A DNA stretch of 20,791 nucleotides, from the IMG/VR virus record IMGVR_UViG_2563366825_000026, positions 1-20,791 of that record; one strand, given 5' to 3'. The stretch's first letter is position 1. Each line of letters begins with the position of its first letter. Below the pieces are notes generated by a model, which searched no databases, was not told the DNA's origin, and worked only from the letters and a program-made list of their open reading frames with translations. The stretch comes from a virus. Lineage: Duplodnaviria; Heunggongvirae; Uroviricota; Caudoviricetes. Of this stretch, positions 3,143 to 14,102 are shown in pieces. The position numbers and the translations under genes are program-made.

Positions 3143-5125
3143 TTATGCTGATTCCCGGTTTTCGTTAACTTTGACTGTGACCGTATCAAGCAGTACCGGA
3201 TACGTCGCTTTTGCCCCCGTGATATCTGTCAGCGTCAGCGTATCTGCTGTAAAGCCATCATTTGTCCACATCACCAGGTCAAACGCAGACTGCTCTGCAT
3301 CATCAATCACCGGCACCACTTTTTCGCTGTTATTTCCCGCAAAGCGGAAAACAACTGTATGCCAGTTATGGTCAAATGCCCCAAATGTGCCCAGTTGCGC
3401 ATTCGACTCCCCCTTGTGGTACATCAGATTCAGATTTGATGCATCCGTCTGAAGGAAGAAGGACGCCAGCATGCTGTTTGCTGTCGCGCCTGACGCCCAC
3501 TGCGACACCGGCCAGTACAGACCAAAGACAAACTGACCGTTAACCAGTTCGACACCCTCCGGGATCTTAAACCGCACGGCAATTTCACCTCCCTTACTGA
3601 GAAGATTTTTTGCCTCCTCCACCGCAACAGTACGGAACATCTTCCAGGAGGTCAGTTTACCCGGCTGTTTTTCCAGTCGCAGCGCCTTCCTGCCACTGTC
3701 ATCCGTCACAGTGCCTTTACCACCGGACGCATTCCACTGCTGCTCTGTCCATACACCACTGCCACTGTTCGCATCATATCCGGCCACCATTCTTGTTACG
3801 GCTTCAGTATGACCGCCTGCAGAAATACCTGCACCCTGCTGTTGCGTCGGACCCGCAGAGCCAGACTGTGCATCCCCCGTGGAGGCTGGCGTGGTCGCCA
3901 GCGGTGCAGACTGCCCGCTCAGGAACGGCAGCAAACGCCCGGCTCGCACCAGTATCTCTCCTGCCAGCCGATCTGAAACAATGCCTCTTCGCGCCCAGGA
4001 GCTGAAGTGCGTTTTACGAGCGGCTGTCGTCCAGTTACCATTACTGCGTGACGCGGCACCATAGTATCCCGCCGTGATAATGTCCGGATCTTCTGACGGC
4101 TCGTTTGTCGGCACATTCGCACCATGCTCATCCGTCATCAACGGCACAAAGTGAATATTCTGCGCCGCCTTGCCTTTATAGCCTCCGTAAACCGCCTCAT
4201 ACTGCACTGCATACTTCGCCTTCCAGTCGTACGTGGTGTCACCGCAAATCCACGGGACGCCGGACGTTGTCCCGCCAATACACTGGTCTGCAATATCTGC
4301 CAGGTCTGCACGGTATTTATTTACCATGGCAAGAAAAAGTGCATTGTGCTCTGCATGTCTCCCCGAACTGACATCTTTTTCCCCCTGCATCCAGATCACC
4401 GACAACAGCACGTTTTTCGGATTTTTCTTCAGGGCTGCACGCGTTCTGCTGACCAGGTCACGATACAACGGTTTATCCACCCCCCACAGGGAAGAGCCCG
4501 CTGTCGCACCCGACGCCTCATTAAACGCGCCCTCTGCTCCCGCAGTAAATCCCGAATCGCCACGTCCACACGGGACAAGAAGGATCCCCGCACGGGCAGG
4601 CATAAACGGCAGCAGTTTTTTGGCCACATGCAGGGCATGCCCCACACAGCCATACTGCCCTTTATTGAGGTCTGCTTTCGGGTGATTCAGATTACTCACG
4701 TCCTGCACATCATGCAGACAATGGTCTGCAGGAATAATGTCGTTATATGCACAGGCCGCACCGCCCGGTGTCACCGTGCTGCGACGCGCCAGTTGCTTAA
4801 TACGCGGGTCAGGACGATCATACGTATCCGGCAGCGGCAGCCCCTCGCCAAAAGACATCGAGTTGGACTGCCCGGCCAGCGCAATGACAAAGTAATATTC
4901 CGGTTCGCTGGTGGTGCTGATAACAGCGCCACCATCACCCGACGGTTGCACCACCACCGGTGTGGTGACATCACCTTCCGCCGCAATGGCCTGCATCAGG
5001 GTATAGGGCGTGATGGCGACAGGGCTGCCAAATGGCTGCCACCCCTCCTTCAGTTTTTGAGTCAGTCGCTCCGCAAGGTCTGACGGCGACGCCGCCCTGA
5101 CCACGTCATAGTGTTTAAATGTCAT
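3143..5125 (-). CDS. nanS: prophage-encoded sialate O-acetylesterase, NanS-p-like (N-terminal DUF1737-like region + SASA/SGNH esterase domain + C-terminal domain)
   Basis: 660 aa; ATG at 5125 with GGGAGG upstream. The FVIALAGQSNSMSFGEG block is the esterase-type GQSN motif. Size and architecture match the NanS-p proteins found just upstream of the lysis genes in Stx-type lambdoid prophages. Confidence 0.8.
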   Translation of the reverse strand: MTFKHYDVVRAASPSDLAERLTQKLKEGWQPFGSPVAITPYTLMQAIAAEGDVTTPVVVQPSGDGGAVISTTSEPEYYFVIALAGQSNSMSFGEGLPLPDTYDRPDPRIKQLARRSTVTPGGAACAYNDIIPADHCLHDVQDVSNLNHPKADLNKGQYGCVGHALHVAKKLLPFMPARAGILLVPCGRGDSGFTAGAEGAFNEASGATAGSSLWGVDKPLYRDLVSRTRAALKKNPKNVLLSVIWMQGEKDVSSGRHAEHNALFLAMVNKYRADLADIADQCIGGTTSGVPWICGDTTYDWKAKYAVQYEAVYGGYKGKAAQNIHFVPLMTDEHGANVPTNEPSEDPDIITAGYYGAASRSNGNWTTAARKTHFSSWARRGIVSDRLAGEILVRAGRLLPFLSGQSAPLATTPASTGDAQSGSAGPTQQQGAGISAGGHTEAVTRMVAGYDANSGSGVWTEQQWNASGGKGTVTDDSGRKALRLEKQPGKLTSWKMFRTVAVEEAKNLLSKGGEIAVRFKIPEGVELVNGQFVFGLYWPVSQWASGATANSMLASFFLQTDASNLNLMYHKGESNAQLGTFGAFDHNWHTVVFRFAGNNSEKVVPVIDDAEQSAFDLVMWTNDGFTADTLTLTDITGAKATYPVLLDTVTVKVNENRESA

Positions 5126-8492: not shown

Positions 8493-8888
8493 TTACCGAG
8501 TTGCTAATTTGCAACTCGCTTTTTCGTACTTACTGATAGTGATCTCGACCTTCCCTTCCGGGATAACCGGTCCCCACTCCACCAGCATTCTTTTCACCTG
8601 GCTGTCGTCTTCCCACACACCCGCGTGGGTCAGGGCGTCAAACAGCGCCTTGTTATAGTTGTCCAGATCGCGGATCCGGTTATCCGGAGGAAACAACACG
8701 ATCTCCACTGAAGCAGGTGCCGACGTTGGTTTCGGCAGACGACGTAACTGCTCAACTATTGCTGCACACGCCGCGCTCTGGAATTTTCGCCCCGCCGCGC
8801 TTATCAGGCTCTTACCAGCAAACGCCCCTTTATTGGGGTGTCGCCAGTACGTGTTCACGCTGGGCGGAAAAGGCAGTATTAGCTTCAT
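8493..8888 (-). CDS. rusA: Holliday junction resolvase RusA (crossover junction endodeoxyribonuclease)
   Basis: 131 aa; LPFPPSVNTYWRH...DLDNYNKALFDALTHAGVWEDDSQV matches RusA family motifs as remembered from E. coli RusA (catalytic DLDN region). Start overlaps the upstream gene's stop (ATGA). Confidence 0.85.
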   Translation of the reverse strand: MKLILPFPPSVNTYWRHPNKGAFAGKSLISAAGRKFQSAACAAIVEQLRRLPKPTSAPASVEIVLFPPDNRIRDLDNYNKALFDALTHAGVWEDDSQVKRMLVEWGPVIPEGKVEITISKYEKASCKLATR

Positions 8889-9211
8889 ACTTTCAGGCCC
8901 CTCTCATGTAACCAGTGGGCTGCACGCAGCCTGGCGTTTGCCTCACCGGCAAGCAGGGCGCGGATAATCCCGACCGCCTCGCTGTCGTCGTCCTTCACCG
9001 CGGTATGAAGAGTGATACCCCGGGCCACGCCACGCTTTATCGTGATGACACCTTTTTTCTCCAGTGCGCGAAGATGCTCCACCGCTGCATTCACCGAACG
9101 GTATCCCAGCATGGTTGCCACCTCCTGATTGGTTGGCGGGAAGCCACGTTCTTTCTGATAAGAAATCAGCATATCCAGCACCTGCTGCTGGCATTGAGTT
9201 AATGTCGTCAT
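8885..9211 (-). CDS. LexA-like winged-helix DNA-binding protein (LexA N-terminal domain only, no S24 peptidase domain)
   Basis: 108 aa; LTQCQQQVLDMLISYQKERGFPPTNQEVATMLGYRSVNAAVEHLRALEKKGVI resembles the N-terminal domain of LexA (LTARQQEVFDLI...[34 protein letters not shown]). Translationally coupled to the genes on both sides. Confidence 0.7.
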   Translation of the reverse strand: MTTLTQCQQQVLDMLISYQKERGFPPTNQEVATMLGYRSVNAAVEHLRALEKKGVITIKRGVARGITLHTAVKDDDSEAVGIIRALLAGEANARLRAAHWLHERGLKV

Positions 9212-9861
9212 GCCGCCATCTCCCTGACCAGTTTTTCCGCCTGCTGGCGAACCTGCGCCAGAAATGCCTCACCACATGCCTCAAGTTCATCGCGCCCGAT
9301 GTAGCTGATTGCCGCTCCCTTCCAGGTCTTGTCGAAAACAGCAATAGCACCAGCGAAGAAAGCACCTGTTGGCACCTGCTTTTCGTCTTTCGGGATAAAC
9401 CAGGCTGGCAGTTCAAAACCAATACGCCCGCGAATAAAAGCAATATGATCTGCATCTTCCGGCCACCACACTTCGCTGGTGGCCGCTTTGATCAGGAAAA
9501 CATAGCGCCCGCCTTTATCACGCATGGCACTGGCATGCTTCATGATGTAACGCATGCCGGTGATGTATTGTCCCTCATGCTGACTGGCGCGGCTGTACGG
9601 GGGATTACCAAAGGCAGCACCTTTAAGCTCCGCAAGACGTTCTGACCAGTCATGTGCCAGCGCGTTGTCTTCCGCCGTGTAATACGCGGCACATTTGGCG
9701 TTATCACCGTCAGTAAACAGATCCAGAACAAACGGGCCAAACAGGGTGTTAATTCCCCAGAAAATGTTGTCCGGCGTGCGCCACTGATCGCCCACTTCCT
9801 TCAGTTCATGGGCTGGTTTGTTCCGTAGTTCCACCAGCGCCTGGCAATATTTATTACTCAT
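9208..9861 (-). CDS. phage DNA N6-adenine methyltransferase (Dam-like)
   Basis: ATG at 9861 overlaps the upstream stop (TAATG). FGNPPYS is an NPPY catalytic motif of N6-adenine methyltransferases. Position in the nin region is typical; corresponds to yfdM of CPS-53 by synteny. Confidence 0.8.
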   Translation of the reverse strand: MSNKYCQALVELRNKPAHELKEVGDQWRTPDNIFWGINTLFGPFVLDLFTDGDNAKCAAYYTAEDNALAHDWSERLAELKGAAFGNPPYSRASQHEGQYITGMRYIMKHASAMRDKGGRYVFLIKAATSEVWWPEDADHIAFIRGRIGFELPAWFIPKDEKQVPTGAFFAGAIAVFDKTWKGAAISYIGRDELEACGEAFLAQVRQQAEKLVREMAA

Positions 9862-10355
9862 TAAGCCCCCACGTAATTCCCTGACAGATACCACTCATCA
9901 CCCGCTACAGCGCGCTTTCTGCTTTTCCGTAAGCACCGCTCACGACGCGCCAGAAAATTGTTTCGTTCTGGCTGGGAGTGGCTTTCACGGAATGCCGCCA
10001 TCCACACGGTTGCAGCACGACGGTATAAGCCCCTGGACTCCAGTTCTTCCGCCTGGCGGGTCAGGCACAAAATCACCCGGGGATCGTTAGTGCCGACATA
10101 GAAATTGCGCACAGGTATGGTTTCAAGAACAGGTTGCAGTTTCTCCTCCTGCGATATCTCAGCCTGGTGTGGGAAATGTCTGCGTGTTTTCCCTTCACAA
10201 CAGTGAGCCACACGGCCACTCTGACGTAACTTGCTTGCTGACTGCAGAACGCACTGTCGTGAGTAACCAGCAAAAGCATCCGCAATGTCACCTGAAGTAC
10301 ACCCCGGATGGGCTTCAATGAATTTCTGTACATCGTTCATCAGACTCATGATCAC
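9861..10355 (-). CDS. hypothetical protein (164 aa), possible PerC-like regulator; yfdN-like by synteny and length
   Basis: Start overlaps the O-like stop (ATGA). Contains an HTH-like segment and an ELESRGLYRRAATVWMAAF block reminiscent of PerC-family proteins. Assignment from memory only. Confidence 0.5.
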   Translation of the reverse strand: MIMSLMNDVQKFIEAHPGCTSGDIADAFAGYSRQCVLQSASKLRQSGRVAHCCEGKTRRHFPHQAEISQEEKLQPVLETIPVRNFYVGTNDPRVILCLTRQAEELESRGLYRRAATVWMAAFRESHSQPERNNFLARRERCLRKSRKRAVAGDEWYLSGNYVGA

Positions 10356-11170
10356 CCCCTGAATCCTGTCGGGATCTGGCTGTAGTCCACGTTGTCGTAA
10401 CTGGCTTTGAAGTACGGGTCCTCGCGTCTGGCTGCAGATACCGCAGGAACTTCCCAGGATTCTTCGAAATGACGATCCGGACCAAAGAACGTGACAGCCT
10501 GTTTCACAAATTGTGTGCCGCTATTGCCCATCGCAGATACCCAGCCCGCGTAGCGTTTCACACCTTCCAGCATGGTTTCGGGGTTTACCCCCTCATTCAA
10601 ACGGGCTTTCCAGGCTTTGAAGGCTGCAGATTTTGAATTGCCACCAGCACGTTTGGGATAGGCCAGCCATGCCTGCTCAAACTCCGGAGAGTATTCCGGT
10701 CGGTTTGAACGAACTCGCACAGACTCATCAGCAGATGCACCAACAGCTATTGGTTCATTGACTGGTTCTTTGACTGGTTCAAAAGAGTGACTGGTTCTGG
10801 GTGAATCTCCTGCACTACCCCCTGGTGCAACTCCTGCACTACCTGGTGAATTTGCTGCACCAGATAGTGAATTATTTGCACTACCCCCTAGTGAATCTCC
10901 TGCACCATCAAGATGAAGGAGATAGATATTACTTGAGTTACCTTTTTCACCTTTCCGGGTGACTTTTTTTACCAGCCCGGACTCACAAAGGGCCGCAATA
11001 TGATTCATCACAGAACGTTTGCTAATCTCGCACTGGTCAGCAATATGCTGGTAGCTGGGCCAGCACTCACCCTGATCGCTGGCATTATCAGCCAGCTTAA
11101 TCAGAACCAGTTTTCGCAATGGATTTCCCACTCGAATTTTCATCGCTTTAACCATCAACTCCATACTCAT
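10352..11170 (-). CDS. replication initiator, lambda O-like (N-terminal HTH domain, low-complexity linker encoded by the iterons, C-terminal domain)
   Basis: 272 aa. N-terminal NPLRKLVLIKLADNASDQGECWPSYQHIADQCEISKRSVMNHIAALCESGLVKK is a replication-initiator-type HTH. The Gly/Ser/Ala-rich linker is encoded by tandem direct repeats, as with ori-lambda inside O. Corresponds to the defective yfdO of CPS-53 by synteny. Confidence 0.6.
   Translation of the reverse strand: MSMELMVKAMKIRVGNPLRKLVLIKLADNASDQGECWPSYQHIADQCEISKRSVMNHIAALCESGLVKKVTRKGEKGNSSNIYLLHLDGAGDSLGGSANNSLSGAANSPGSAGVAPGGSAGDSPRTSHSFEPVKEPVNEPIAVGASADESVRVRSNRPEYSPEFEQAWLAYPKRAGGNSKSAAFKAWKARLNEGVNPETMLEGVKRYAGWVSAMGNSGTQFVKQAVTFFGPDRHFEESWEVPAVSAARREDPYFKASYDNVDYSQIPTGFRG
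10755..10920. repeat. putative origin of replication: iteron-like direct repeats inside the O-like gene
   Basis: Three copies of TGACTGGTTC (10759-10768, 10771-10780, 10788-10797), then about five 21-25-bp repeats of the form GTGAA(T)-CTCCTGCAC(T/C)ACC between 10801 and 10915, next to an AT-richer stretch. Confidence 0.5.
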
Positions 11171-11391
11171 GCAGCACCTCCGAGATGCTTCATGTTTTTT
11201 CCGGAGCGAAAGGCTATAAGCGGCATACTGACGCGGTAATTACGGCCCAGCGGTTCACAAATCACCTTCTGACATTCACGGTCAACCAGGCTAACACGTA
11301 GAACATGCCCTGCAGGCGTGGTGTACCACTGACCCGGACGAGGACAACGGAAAGTATGATTGGTAAACCGTTTGAAAATATTCCGGATCAT
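11167..11391 (-). CDS. hypothetical protein (74 aa)
   Basis: ATG overlaps the Rha-protein stop (ATGA) and its stop overlaps the O-like start (ATGA), so it is translationally coupled on both sides. No family recognised. Confidence 0.4.
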   Translation of the reverse strand: MIRNIFKRFTNHTFRCPRPGQWYTTPAGHVLRVSLVDRECQKVICEPLGRNYRVSMPLIAFRSGKNMKHLGGAA

Positions 11392-12539
11392 TTGCGCCCC
11401 CTTACCTCTGAAGGGTTCAGCGACAAATTTATGAGACTGGCCAGTAGCGCCGCGTCGTTGATGCGGTCATACAGACTTACAGCCAGCGGGGATTCGGCTT
11501 TTGCCAACATGGGATAAAGCTGCTGCAGCCAGACCTGATGAATTGATGAAATGTAGGAATAGAGAACGCTGGCGTTATATGCAACGTCGCTCAGTACAGA
11601 GGGATTTGAAAGCTGTTTCTCCATCTGGTTAAAGGCATTGATGTATGCCTCTTTGAACCGGGCAGCACGTTTACCCGTGAAGCCCATGGCAAGAAACGCA
11701 AAACCGTCGCGGGTGATTTGGTAACAAGGGAGTTTGCGGCCTGATGCGTCGGTGTATTCACTTAACACAAAATTGTGTTCAGTAAATTCAGCGGAACATT
11801 CGAGGTTTCTAATTCTATCTAAAACCCGCTCATGCCGTTTAGTAAAGTAATTAGCTACTGCAAGAGATGTGGTGACAACGCGACCATTGATAATCGTGAT
11901 TTCAGGGTGAGATTGGGTTGGGAGAGTAGTCATGGTGACAGCCCCTATGTTGAATTCAATGAACTCACCACCAAGGCTTTCCACGACCATATAGGTGGTG
12001 AGACGTACAGGGGTGGAAATACCGGTCAACATAGAACCCGGCCCAACCGAAGTTGGCCCTGCACGCCCCACCATAATTTGGGCGTAACGATGCTCATGAC
12101 ACGAAAAAACCGCATGAGCGCGGTTGTGCTCTATATTGAATTTCGGGTTTCCACGCCCGGCACCCGCTTTATAAGGTGCCTGAACAGTGTAACGTCCCGG
12201 AATTGCAGAATCAATATGCTGGTGGTCCTTCACACTCAACAAAATCACGCCTGAATTTCCACAAAGGACTAAAGCACTCATGCGGGTAGTCTTTGCGAAG
12301 ATAGATAACGCGCTGTGTTTCTGGCTCCCAACGAATAACATGGACATAAAGCCCTCTTCCGTCACGAAACCAGCGGTTAAGTTCCTGCACAACTCGCCCC
12401 CCACAGTCAGGTAAAGTTCTCTGTGGTTACTTACAGCCAGGTGATTTGGTAATCTGCATTCATGCCGTAACAACAGGTGTTCAGCGACGCTGACCACCAG
12501 CTGTTGCGACAAACGGTTATTTGCCGTTAAACTATTCAT
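11388..12539 (-). CDS. Rha-domain phage regulatory protein with an N-terminal extension of about 200 aa of unknown function
   Basis: Residues from about 203 (MTTLPTQSHPEITIINGRVVTTSLAVANYFTKRHERVLDRIRNLECSAEF...DGFAFLAMGFTGKRAARFKEAYINAFNQME) match the Rha domain, which is usually N-terminal. An internal ATG at 11933 with an AGGGG SD could give a 181-aa Rha-only product. The 12539 ATG overlaps the upstream stop (ATGA), supporting the long form. Confidence 0.6.
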   Translation of the reverse strand: MNSLTANNRLSQQLVVSVAEHLLLRHECRLPNHLAVSNHRELYLTVGGELCRNLTAGFVTEEGFMSMLFVGSQKHSALSIFAKTTRMSALVLCGNSGVILLSVKDHQHIDSAIPGRYTVQAPYKAGAGRGNPKFNIEHNRAHAVFSCHEHRYAQIMVGRAGPTSVGPGSMLTGISTPVRLTTYMVVESLGGEFIEFNIGAVTMTTLPTQSHPEITIINGRVVTTSLAVANYFTKRHERVLDRIRNLECSAEFTEHNFVLSEYTDASGRKLPCYQITRDGFAFLAMGFTGKRAARFKEAYINAFNQMEKQLSNPSVLSDVAYNASVLYSYISSIHQVWLQQLYPMLAKAESPLAVSLYDRINDAALLASLINLSLNPSEVRGRK

Positions 12540-13105
12540 GCGTTAGTTTCTCCACAACCAGAAGCAATCGACGCCACGACGCCCGGAGCTGCACACTCGC
12601 GGGCGTTACTATTTTCTGGAGCGCAGAAGATTTTGTAGACCAGTGCTGCATGCTCCTGGAGCTTCGAAATTGAGAGGTACAGCTCGTCGTTAATTGCTGT
12701 CTTCTCATGCGGTTCCACTACACCGTCTTCGATTGCTGAACGAATCTGTCTGGAATAACTGCCGATCTGTTCAATGACTTCCAGCAGACGCTGGTTAATA
12801 TCGGCGTTGTCCACATCCTCGACGTCAGGAAGAGACACAAAGACGCCATTTGCAGACTGCGCCACAGCGTCAGCAATGAAGTGAGTTCCACCAGCACGTT
12901 GTAAAATCATTGCCCATCCCAGCGGGAAAATCTGATCGCCATCGGCACGAAGGCGATTGAATAAAGCGTTCTCTGTTACATCCAGCCACTCAGCAGCTTC
13001 AGCGTAACCCCCCGGCAACGCCGCGATAGTTTTTCTGACAGCTTTCACGTACCACTCAGGCTGTTTTTCTACTTTCCAGTGATGCTTACCCACGGTTAGC
13101 CTCAT
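12536..13105 (-). CDS. early regulatory protein at the cII position (possibly YdaT-family)
   Basis: 189 aa, immediately downstream of the cro-like gene; protein-like composition. YdaT-family assignment rests on synteny with YdaS-like Cro, not on recognised motifs. Confidence 0.45.
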   Translation of the reverse strand: MRLTVGKHHWKVEKQPEWYVKAVRKTIAALPGGYAEAAEWLDVTENALFNRLRADGDQIFPLGWAMILQRAGGTHFIADAVAQSANGVFVSLPDVEDVDNADINQRLLEVIEQIGSYSRQIRSAIEDGVVEPHEKTAINDELYLSISKLQEHAALVYKIFCAPENSNARECAAPGVVASIASGCGETNA

Positions 13106-13427: not shown

Positions 13428-14102
13428 ATGAAAACAGTCCATGACATCCGGCGGTCTAACGCCAGAAAACTGAGAGATGGTGTTGGCGGGAATTCTTCCT
13501 TTGCCACCATGATTGATCGCGAGCCAACCCAGACCAGCAGGTTTATGGGAGATGGTGCTACTAAAAATATCGGTGACAGCATGGCACGGCACATCGAAAA
13601 ATGTTTCGACCTGCCTGTCGGATGGCTTGATCAAGAACACCAGACAACAAACATCACAAAAAAACCTGATGTTTCAATTACTAACAAACAAATAACGTTA
13701 GTCCCTGTCATATCATGGGTACAGGCCGGAGCATGGAAAGAAGTTGGCTATTCTGAGGTTGATTTGAGCACAGCAGAAACTTATCCCTGCCCTGTACCCT
13801 GTGGCGAAATGACTTATATCTTGCGGGTGATTGGTGATTCAATGATTGATGAGTACCGCCCGGGAGACATGATTTTTGTAGATCCTGAAGTCCCTGCCTG
13901 CCACGGTGACGACGTTATTGCATTGATGCACGATACAGGCGAAACCACCTTTAAGCGGTTGATAGAAGATGGAACACAGCGTTACCTCAAAGCATTAAAC
14001 CCAAACTGGCCTGAACCTTACATTAAGATCAACGGTAATTGCTCTATAATTGGCACAGTAATTTTCTCAGGAAAACCAAGAAGATACAAAATAAAGGCCT
14101 AA
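13428..14102 (+). CDS. cI: CI-like prophage repressor with N-terminal HTH and C-terminal LexA-like S24 peptidase (autocleavage) domain
   Basis: 224 aa. XRE-like HTH (SFATMIDREPTQTSRFMG) and C-terminal VIGDSMIDEY...TFKRL Ser/Lys dyad typical of LexA/cI-type self-cleaving repressors. Followed by a strong terminator. Confidence 0.85.
   Translation: MKTVHDIRRSNARKLRDGVGGNSSFATMIDREPTQTSRFMGDGATKNIGDSMARHIEKCFDLPVGWLDQEHQTTNITKKPDVSITNKQITLVPVISWVQAGAWKEVGYSEVDLSTAETYPCPVPCGEMTYILRVIGDSMIDEYRPGDMIFVDPEVPACHGDDVIALMHDTGETTFKRLIEDGTQRYLKALNPNWPEPYIKINGNCSIIGTVIFSGKPRRYKIKA

Follow-up and report, generated by a model that had tools for sequence, protein, structure and literature searches.

The stretch of DNA analyzed here (20,791 nucleotides [nt]; positions 1 to 20,791 of the IMG/VR virus record IMGVR_UViG_2563366825_000026, from the Caudoviricetes), referred to below as the window, encodes a lambdoid replication initiator of 272 amino acids (aa). 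The C-terminal tail of this protein is shared with E. coli DnaT, a host adaptor that acts with DnaB and DnaC; the linker-coding part of its gene contains phased, iteron-like repeats; and no recognizable gene for a helicase or a helicase loader accompanies it. In the reading that we consider somewhat more probable than all others together, replication would depend on one initiator, with an origin inside its own gene and a DnaT-like tail that recruits the host DnaB-DnaC complex; a phage loader or helicase gene would then be unnecessary because the tail would bring in the host proteins. The initiator gene and its parts are as follows.

10352..11170, minus strand: replication initiator gene, an intact open reading frame (ORF) with an ATG start, 272 aa plus stop.
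10913..11170, minus strand: N-terminal winged-helix DNA-binding domain, aa 1 to 86.
10706..10912, minus strand: disordered low-complexity linker, aa 87 to 155, with the putative origin inside its coding DNA.
10439..10705, minus strand: helical C-terminal domain, aa 156 to 244, with the motif F..AW..YPKRAGGN.K...W.AR...G...GV.RY...VKQA.TFFGPD..F...W.
10355..10429, minus strand: 25-aa C-terminal tail RREDPYFKASYDNVDYSQIPTGFRG, aa 248 to 272, a putative docking motif similar to that of DnaT.

Searched as a whole protein against PHROGs, the initiator falls into phrog_270, “replication initiation protein,” with an expectation value (E) of 1e-88. An AlphaFold model based on 120 members of the family predicts four parts: a confident winged helix (residues 1 to 86), a low-confidence linker (residues ~87 to 155), a confident four-helix domain (residues ~160 to 240), and a tail of lower confidence. 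The linker is rich in Gly, Ser, Ala, and Asn, and its residues 91 to 150 have block-mean predicted local distance difference test (pLDDT) values of 41 to 67 and no secondary structure in the model. The N-terminal domain belongs to the Pfam family HTH_36 (1.8e-11). It also shows a weak match to DnaD_N (PF21984; 24.3 bits, under the 27-bit curated cutoff), and the profile of the initiator family reaches the DnaD N-terminal domains 2vn2 (9e-5) and 2v79 (6e-4) in the PDB.

The C-terminal domain matches no Pfam model, and a Foldseek search finds no significant relative among solved structures. Its family is very large: an exhaustive search of 1.84 billion representatives yields 4556 clusters at E<=1e-3, with the domain nearly always located at the C terminus of proteins of 240 to 350 aa. 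This family becomes visible through the exhaustive search; a word-indexed protein search with the C-terminal 135 aa returns short partial proteins almost exclusively. The genome scan for relatives was seeded with a 16-sequence alignment of the C-terminal domain, the 120-sequence full-length alignment being too diverse. A search of viral contigs with the window protein finds only loci that are 99 to 100% identical, which are uninformative for co-variation.

The initiator ends in ...YDNVDYSQIPTGFRG, and E. coli DnaT ends in ...NTVSEPDSQIPPGFRG. At the extreme C terminus of both, 8 of 9 residues are identical (SQIPTGFRG in the initiator and SQIPPGFRG in DnaT). The DnaT tail KRD.N..S.PD..IPPGFRG is near-invariant in 120 DnaT orthologs, and by its terminal pattern, ...PD..IPPGFRG-COOH, the end of the initiator is of the DnaT type. 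Other parts of DnaT were not found in the initiator: the three-helix DNA-binding domain (PF17948) gives no match, and in place of the oligomerization domain and the acidic PriB-binding linker, the initiator has a winged helix-turn-helix N terminus and its Gly/Ser/Ala/Asn-rich linker. The earlier note, made from the sequence alone, had considered that the C-terminal part might prove to be a homolog of a helicase loader. It is not a homolog of the AAA+ loaders or of lambda P; the idea survives only in the sense that the protein ends in the tail of a host adaptor that works with DnaB-DnaC.

The same tail is found on three otherwise dissimilar types of phage initiators as well as on DnaT. The first type includes the window protein and its relatives; one of these, from a Pantoea prophage (L097), aligns to DnaT residues 108 to 179 with E=2e-9. 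The second is the lambda-O-like initiator of phages SfII and SfIV, which bears the tail with 1 or 2 residue differences. In SfII, this “primosomal protein” (L131:4045-4986) has a C-terminal domain 31% identical to that of lambda O (E=7e-26), with the last ~29 residues of lambda O swapped for the DnaT-like tail; no P gene follows, and the linker-coding DNA has phased repeats at gene positions 390, 411, and 435. Lambda O itself, which is partnered by P, ends differently (...TDWIYGVDL). The third type is YdaU (DUF1376) of the Rac prophage of E. coli K-12, which ends in ...NTVSLPDSAIPPGFRG and aligns to DnaT residues 111 to 179 with E=9e-9; over its last 19 residues, ...RQVNTVSLPDSAIPPGFRG, it is identical to the DnaT tail at 16 positions. 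In Rac, ydaU is followed by a gene for the DnaC-like YdaV (L214:2120-3730), an arrangement that looks like a phage counterpart of dnaT-dnaC.

Comparison of genes of the window type with those of the SfII type shows unrelated DNA until position ~10427, followed by ~95% identity through the 25 tail codons and into the downstream PerC/yfdN gene. The tail codons and the PerC/yfdN gene thus form one conserved mosaic block that is attached to unrelated initiator bodies, with the tail codons as its left edge. Among 5426 complete E. coli genomes, 897 carry the full initiator gene and 2689 (about half) have some match to it; many of the partial matches are exactly 76 nt long and correspond to window positions 10352 to 10427, and in many of the 2689 genomes, the tail-coding block adjoins yfdN. 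A related fusion was seen in a 143-aa E. coli protein (P0109), in which a KilA-N N terminus is joined to the last ~50 residues of an initiator of the SfII type, DnaT-like tail included; a deletion within a decayed prophage presumably gave rise to it. A literature search found no description of the shared tail, of its occurrence on several dissimilar initiator bodies, or of its co-variation with the loader type.

Within the C-terminal domain family, the tails are modular, and comparison of 47 species-dereplicated loci shows that the tail class co-varies with the type of loader encoded downstream. In addition to the classes given below, further ones exist.

Class A (DnaT-like; ...RD.N.(I/L)S.PD..IPxGFRG, matching DnaT over ~19 residues), 8 of 8 loci: DnaC paralog at +3 to +12 nt, 45 to 50% identical to E. 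coli DnaC over 217 to 244 aa; no DnaB.
Class B / B' (class B tail, ...LPVSGFSEQDYG..CNW), 13 of 13 loci: distinct 292-aa-type AAA+ loader and a DnaB-family helicase.
Class D, 3 of 3 loci: 279-aa loader.

One of the class A paralogs (downstream of L102) may be truncated. NCBIfam was applied to four of the eight class A neighbors, each of which scores above the NF009043 cutoff and under that of the DnaC equivalog. Among IMG/VR loci of one class A type (L099), a DnaC-like gene is present in 80 of 80, and the ending IP.GF(R/K)G is kept in 79 of 80. In E. coli, dnaT is likewise followed by dnaC, with a gap of 2 nt. The DnaT-like tail therefore occurs in two settings: it either adjoins a gene for a DnaC-type loader or belongs to a module without a loader (the window, SfV, mEp460, SfII, and SfIV) in hosts that have DnaC. 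Other conserved tails are found on the same C-terminal domain in L083 to L095 and L123 (class B) and in L111, L117, and L118 (class D), each tied to a different downstream loader type; these tails (...LPVSGFSEQDYG..CNW, ...HSGF..RDYG.T..P.W, and ...YGTNDLELPAWARD) may be further docking peptides.

The absence of a recognizable helicase or loader gene, which had been reported in the earlier note along with a proposal for HMM (hidden Markov model) searches, is borne out. Pfam, PHROGs, and NCBIfam profiles give no match to the DnaB, DnaC/IstB, or lambda P families among the early-region ORFs scanned; DciA was not searched separately. Six-frame tblastn was run with seven loader or helicase queries, among them DnaC and DnaB of E. 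coli, lambda P, and three such proteins from phages. No hit better than E=1 came from the window, the genome of phage mEp460 (complete, 44.5 kb), the SfII early region, or the 80 IMG/VR loci carrying the initiator gene. The annotation of the mEp460 genome likewise lists no helicase or loader, and the sister modules of SfII and SfIV are also without a loader.

The earlier note took the module to be either intact, recruiting host DnaB/DnaC in a different way, or part of a replication-defective prophage, and the first alternative fits. The initiator gene differs from that of the mEp460 “replication protein” by 11 nt and 2 aa, and because mEp460, with this nearly identical initiator, also has no helicase or loader, the module appears to be working rather than defective. 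A defect for lack of a loader was accordingly rejected as a property of the module: phage SfIV, with its loader-less sister module, is UV inducible and forms plaques (PMC3851460). The 3.6-kb early region shows ~94% nucleotide identity with mEp460, cdtI, and several PhiR phages, including PhiR40_1, as well as with Stx2a_WGPS2 (window positions 9000 to 12600 against AP012537, 94.0% identity over 100% of the length). The genes int, cI, cro, cII, and Q and the lysis genes are all within the window. The “Eru6” replication region of Shiga toxin (Stx) phages, which has been catalogued without mechanistic characterization (Fagerlund et al. 2022, PMC8951638), is defined by a Rha-family protein and then an HTH_36 protein directly upstream of cI, as in its reference phage Stx2a_WGPS2 (AP012537); the window, with the order cI, cro, cII, Ash/Rha, 74-aa ORF, and HTH_36 protein, is of this type. 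In line with the affinity to CPS-53 that had been proposed, the gene downstream of the initiator is yfdN in RefSeq. In the explanation that fits best, this is the replication module of a lambdoid prophage of the SfV/mEp460/CPS-53 type (“Eru6”), complete and working.

The repeats in the linker-coding DNA had been placed at 10755 to 10920, which is right within a few bases; they cover 10759 to 10905 and are flanked by AT-rich DNA.

10801..10905, no strand: five iteron-like repeats with 15-bp cores starting at 10801, 10825, 10846, 10867, and 10891 (spacing, 24/21/21/24 bp).
10759..10797, no strand: second repeat family, three exact copies of TGACTGGTTC at 10759, 10771, and 10788, adjoining the iterons.
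10914..10972, no strand: candidate unwinding element flanking the iterons, consisting of an AT-rich stretch (10914 to 10946), a hairpin TCACCTTTCCGGGTGA (10947 to 10962), and then a T-run.

The 15-mer GTGAATCTCCTGCAC is found with no more than 2 mismatches at 10801, 10825, 10846, and 10891; the fifth core, at 10867, is weaker (82% over 39 nt). With up to 3 mismatches, this 15-mer has 6 matches in the window versus 0.65 expected, a number reached in 0 of 100 shuffles, and Tandem Repeats Finder reports a period of 24 bp repeated 4.6 times at 10801 to 10905. For TGACTGGTTC with up to 1 mismatch, 5 matches stand against 1.25 expected, and none of 100 shuffles yields as many. Read on the coding strand, the 15-bp cores are all imperfect palindromes, GTGCA-N5-T(T/G)CAC, as would be expected of sites bound by a dimeric winged-helix protein. 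The G+C content of 10914 to 10946, counted from the sequence, is ~31%, and 60-nt windows over 10880 to 10979 have G+C fractions of 0.40 to 0.42, among the lowest within 10000 to 11600. At the protein level, the repeat DNA encodes residues ~88 to 140 (GDSLGGSANNSLSGAANSPGSAGVAPGGSAGDSP...EPVKEPVNEP), which form the linker that the structure model predicts with low confidence.

Close relatives vary at 24 sites, none of which falls into the 159-bp repeat block (gene positions 262 to 420), making it the least variable part of the initiator gene despite the disordered linker that it encodes. Diverse relatives, L084, L090, L091, L098, L103, L104, L127, and SfII among them, have 4 to 6 direct repeats with 20- to 25-bp phasing at the same gene position. 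The sequences of these repeats vary by lineage and their spacing is often not a multiple of three, which argues that they are a feature of the DNA and not a peptide repeat. The repeat-finding script recovers exactly the four annotated iterons of lambda. A codon-shuffle null for the repeat counts, with null maxima of 3 to 4 copies, discriminates poorly; the argument therefore rests on the phasing, the position, the lambda control, and the shuffle count for GTGAATCTCCTGCAC. The repeats are genuine; that the same arrangement is seen again and again in the family is stronger evidence than the counts. The segment from 10750 to 10975 is a candidate origin. A DnaA-dependent, plasmid-like origin was also considered, and no DnaA box TTWTNCACA is present on either strand of the window (2.1 expected by chance). 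Seven class A relatives (L096, L097, L099, L101, L102, L105, and L106) have an N-terminal part without a Pfam match, and the DNA for their linkers contains only 12-bp acidic repeats (ACAGGAACAGGA and similar) and no 21- to 24-bp phased repeats. The origins of these seven may lie elsewhere or be differently organized.

In the proposed mechanism, dimers of the N-terminal winged-helix domain would bind the five phased 15-bp iterons at 10801 to 10905, and possibly the TGACTGGTTC repeats as well, and the AT-rich stretch next to the iterons would open. The helical C-terminal domain together with the 25-aa tail (...IPTGFRG-COOH) would then recruit the host DnaB-DnaC complex, the tail serving as a docking peptide. 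Binding of the initiator to the iterons and a physical contact of the tail with DnaC or DnaB are both predictions. DnaC is favored as the partner of the tail because of the gene adjacency in the relatives.

Several points weigh against this reading. The strong match between the initiator tail and DnaT is limited to the last 9 to 11 residues (E=0.009 in a single comparison); in its upstream half, the tail diverges from DnaT, and inspection suggests a short insertion there. All five iteron copies lie in one reading frame, so that this gene, taken alone, is also compatible with selection for a peptide repeat. Tail class and loader type could covary in part because neighboring DNA is inherited together and not because the proteins touch. 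Class A phages encode no DnaB, so the partner of the tail could equally be host DnaB; the DnaB6-DnaC6 complex is a further candidate. The sole reported role of DnaT residues 154 to 179 is a modest contribution to cooperative binding of single-stranded DNA (ssDNA) (PMC4132743). The authors of the 2026 preprimosome structures, in which the DnaT C-terminal domains are taken from the crystal structure of DnaT84-153 (4OU7), favor the N-terminal domain of DnaT, not its tail, as the recruiter of DnaB/DnaC, a route that in their words “remains unknown” (PMC13377028). The literature search turned up no experiment on the initiator studied here.

A broader version of the same idea would cover phages and hosts alike. 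In it, ...PD..IPxGFRG would be a portable docking peptide for DnaC-type loaders or DnaB6-DnaC6; the host dnaT-dnaC pair would be a domesticated pair of a phage initiator C terminus and a loader, of the Rac YdaU-YdaV kind; recruitment of DnaB-DnaC by PriA-PriB-DnaT would run through the tail; and loader-less lambdoid phages (SfV, SfII, SfIV, mEp460, CPS-53, and the Eru6 Stx phages) would take the host loader by the same contact. We put this joint reading forward tentatively, as one that has a reasonable chance but is on balance doubtful.

The genes next to the initiator bear on the alternatives discussed below. Two of them, described in the earlier note as a 164-aa PerC-like protein and Dam, are confirmed as such by profile searches.

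9861..10355, minus strand: PerC/YfdN-like protein of 164 aa (PF06069, 4.5e-9; phrog_1324, “transcriptional activator,” 4e-75; yfdN in RefSeq).
9208..9894, minus strand: phage Dam N6-adenine methyltransferase (PF05869, 6e-45; TIGR01712, 4e-76).
11167..11391, minus strand: 74-aa ORF matching phrog_1153 (4e-45), a family with no assigned function; its stop overlaps the start of the initiator gene, and mEp460 and SfV have a conserved copy.

The early-right operon has the order cI, cro, CII/YmfL-like, Ash+Rha, 74-aa ORF, initiator, PerC/YfdN-like, Dam, LexA-DNA-binding-domain protein, RusA, KilA-N, DUF968/HNH, and Q. The cI gene is on the plus strand at 13428 to 14102, and the remainder of the window spans the lysis genes through the integrase. 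The PerC-like gene lies directly downstream of the initiator, begins at its stop codon, is co-inherited with the tail, and does not encode a recognizable loader.

Three other proteins of the window have the following domains. Between the CII-like gene and the 74-aa ORF, a 383-aa ORF (11388 to 12539, minus strand) combines an Ash domain (residues 117 to 213) with a Rha domain (residues 223 to 308); its N-terminal ~60 residues are outside the phrog_821 match, suggesting that the true start may be internal. A 108-aa protein (8885 to 9211, minus strand) consists of a LexA DNA-binding domain alone (PF01726, 2.9e-19), without an S24 peptidase domain, and would be a non-cleavable LexA-like binder in a phage early operon. 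Downstream of Q, a 660-aa protein (3143 to 5125, minus strand) contains DUF1737, a SASA esterase domain, and DUF6645; in this it is similar to sialate O-acetylesterases of the NanS-p type, which are encoded by lambdoid and Stx prophages.

Instead of docking DnaC or DnaB directly, the initiator might mimic DnaT in PriA-dependent restart, its tail and C-terminal domain binding PriA and/or PriB, so that the helicase would arrive at the opened origin via the preprimosome with no direct contact between the tail and DnaC or DnaB. DnaT, with which the tail is shared, is a component of the preprimosome and binds PriA by its C-terminal domain and PriB by its linker (PMC13377028), and relatives of the initiator are annotated in databases as “primosomal protein I.” Yet the published PriA and PriB contacts are made by the linker of DnaT and by its C-terminal domain, for which the 84-153 crystal structure was used, and the Gly/Ser/Ala/Asn-rich linker of the phage protein is not of the acidic PriB-binding type. 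Such mimicry would also leave unexplained the constant adjacency of the tail to a DnaC paralog in the relatives, and we regard it as unlikely.

A role for the tail in ssDNA binding or in oligomerization of the initiator on the opened origin, with the helicase recruited by another surface (e.g., the helical C-terminal domain) or by an unidentified host factor, appears to be about as improbable. Without DnaT residues 154 to 179, the apparent dissociation constant (Kd) for dT30 rises two- to threefold, from 9.9 uM (DnaT84-179) or 12.9 uM (full length) to 27 uM, and the Hill coefficient also falls (PMC4132743). In addition, the C-terminal domain is far more common than the tail, which is present in only ~10% of the representatives among the matches listed for the 4556 clusters. 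However, neither the strict correspondence of tail classes to loader types nor the replacement of the lambda O tail by a DnaT-like tail exactly where P is absent would be predicted from this role.

Still less probable is that one of the small neighbors, the 164-aa PerC/YfdN-like protein or the product of the 74-aa ORF, is an unrecognized helicase adaptor or loader in the role of lambda P, with the tail as its docking site. The mosaic block formed by the tail and the PerC-like gene, which is widespread in E. coli genomes on unrelated initiator bodies, the start of the PerC-like gene at the initiator stop codon, and the lack of a known function for the 74-aa ORF would all be compatible with such a loader. 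However, PerC-family proteins are annotated as transcriptional activators; the same tail is found in DnaT, YdaU, and class A initiators, where the neighbor is DnaC-like and not PerC-like; and adjacency alone accounts for the co-inheritance. Finally, that the module is a decayed, nonfunctional remnant and its DNA repeats a mere by-product of a low-complexity peptide linker is very improbable. In its favor, the prophage is visible over 20.8 kb only, the five repeats share one frame and give a peptide repeat of the G-S-A-G-D-S kind, and CPS-53 of K-12 is a cryptic prophage. Against it, the ORF is intact and 2 residues from the mEp460 protein, the integrase, regulatory, and lysis genes listed above are in the window, the phased repeats of relatives have spacings that are not multiples of 3, and no other part of the initiator gene varies as little as the repeat block.

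Standard accounts of lambdoid replication pair an initiator with a loader (O-P) or with a helicase (P22 18-12); the module described here is a very common third arrangement with neither. It is found in isolated phages, including Shiga toxin-converting ones, whose toxin output is driven by replication. The comparisons suggest that a motif of 9 to 20 residues is the link to host DnaB-DnaC, and a role of the tail as proposed above would offer a testable answer to a question stated in papers of 2024 and 2026, namely by what route DnaT and the preprimosome bring in DnaB-DnaC. The pattern also lends support to a possible phage origin of the dnaT-dnaC operon. What is new relative to the known systems is an iteron-initiator replicon in a lambdoid phage that dispenses with a loader, together with a hypothesis at the level of a motif that bears on DnaT function.

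The closest parallel in layout is lambda O with ori-lambda. In both, repeats with dyad symmetry (four in lambda and five in the window) lie inside the initiator gene, in the segment encoding the linker, 20 to 24 bp apart (21 to 24 bp in the window) and next to an AT-rich stretch, and in both, the gene is located just downstream of cII in the early-right operon. The order of repeats, AT-rich DNA, and palindrome in ori-lambda resembles that in the window, the positions of the lambda iterons being the part checked here. In sequence, the proteins differ: the window protein has an HTH_36 domain with a weak DnaD_N match, no match to Phage_rep_O (PF04492; 5.7e-36 for lambda O as a control), and no meaningful BLASTP alignment to lambda O, and it has a different C-terminal domain, a DnaT-like tail, and no P gene beside it. 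The description “O-like” given in the earlier note thus holds for the architecture only. Iteron plasmids (pSC101, R6K, F, and P1) also combine a single Rep initiator and iterons with a helicase and loader borrowed from the host, as proposed here, an arrangement that is ordinary among plasmids; their origins normally use DnaA boxes, whereas the window has none.

The SfII/SfIV initiator (“primosomal protein” or “O protein family”) occupies the same position in its module, with PerC, Dam, LexA-like, and RusA genes downstream, no loader, and nearly the same 25-aa tail; it differs in its lambda-O-like C-terminal domain and in its linker repeats. YdaU of Rac is likewise a prophage replication-region protein with a DnaT-like end, but it has a DUF1376 N-terminal domain, another C-terminal domain, and its own DnaC-like ATPase, YdaV, a gene that has no equivalent in the window module. 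The DopC-DopE system shares with the window protein an HTH_36 N-terminal domain and a DnaT-related C-terminal element in an O-like protein, and both this domain combination and the parallel between O-P, DopC-DopE, and DnaT-DnaC have already been drawn (Brezellec et al. 2017, PMC5509034). DopC, in contrast, is a domesticated chromosomal gene with no iterons and a P-like partner, DopE, whereas the initiator described here belongs to a prophage and has iterons and no P-like partner. DnaT lacks both iterons and a domain for sequence-specific DNA binding and acts at forks via PriA and PriB; the window protein has neither the DnaT N-terminal domain nor PF17948, and its helical C-terminal domain has no established homology to DnaT. 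What the window protein and the E. coli DnaT-DnaC pair have in common is the C-terminal ...(S/D)xIPxGFRG-COOH and, through the relatives that align to DnaT 108-179, a DnaC paralog located at +3 nt, as in dnaT-dnaC.

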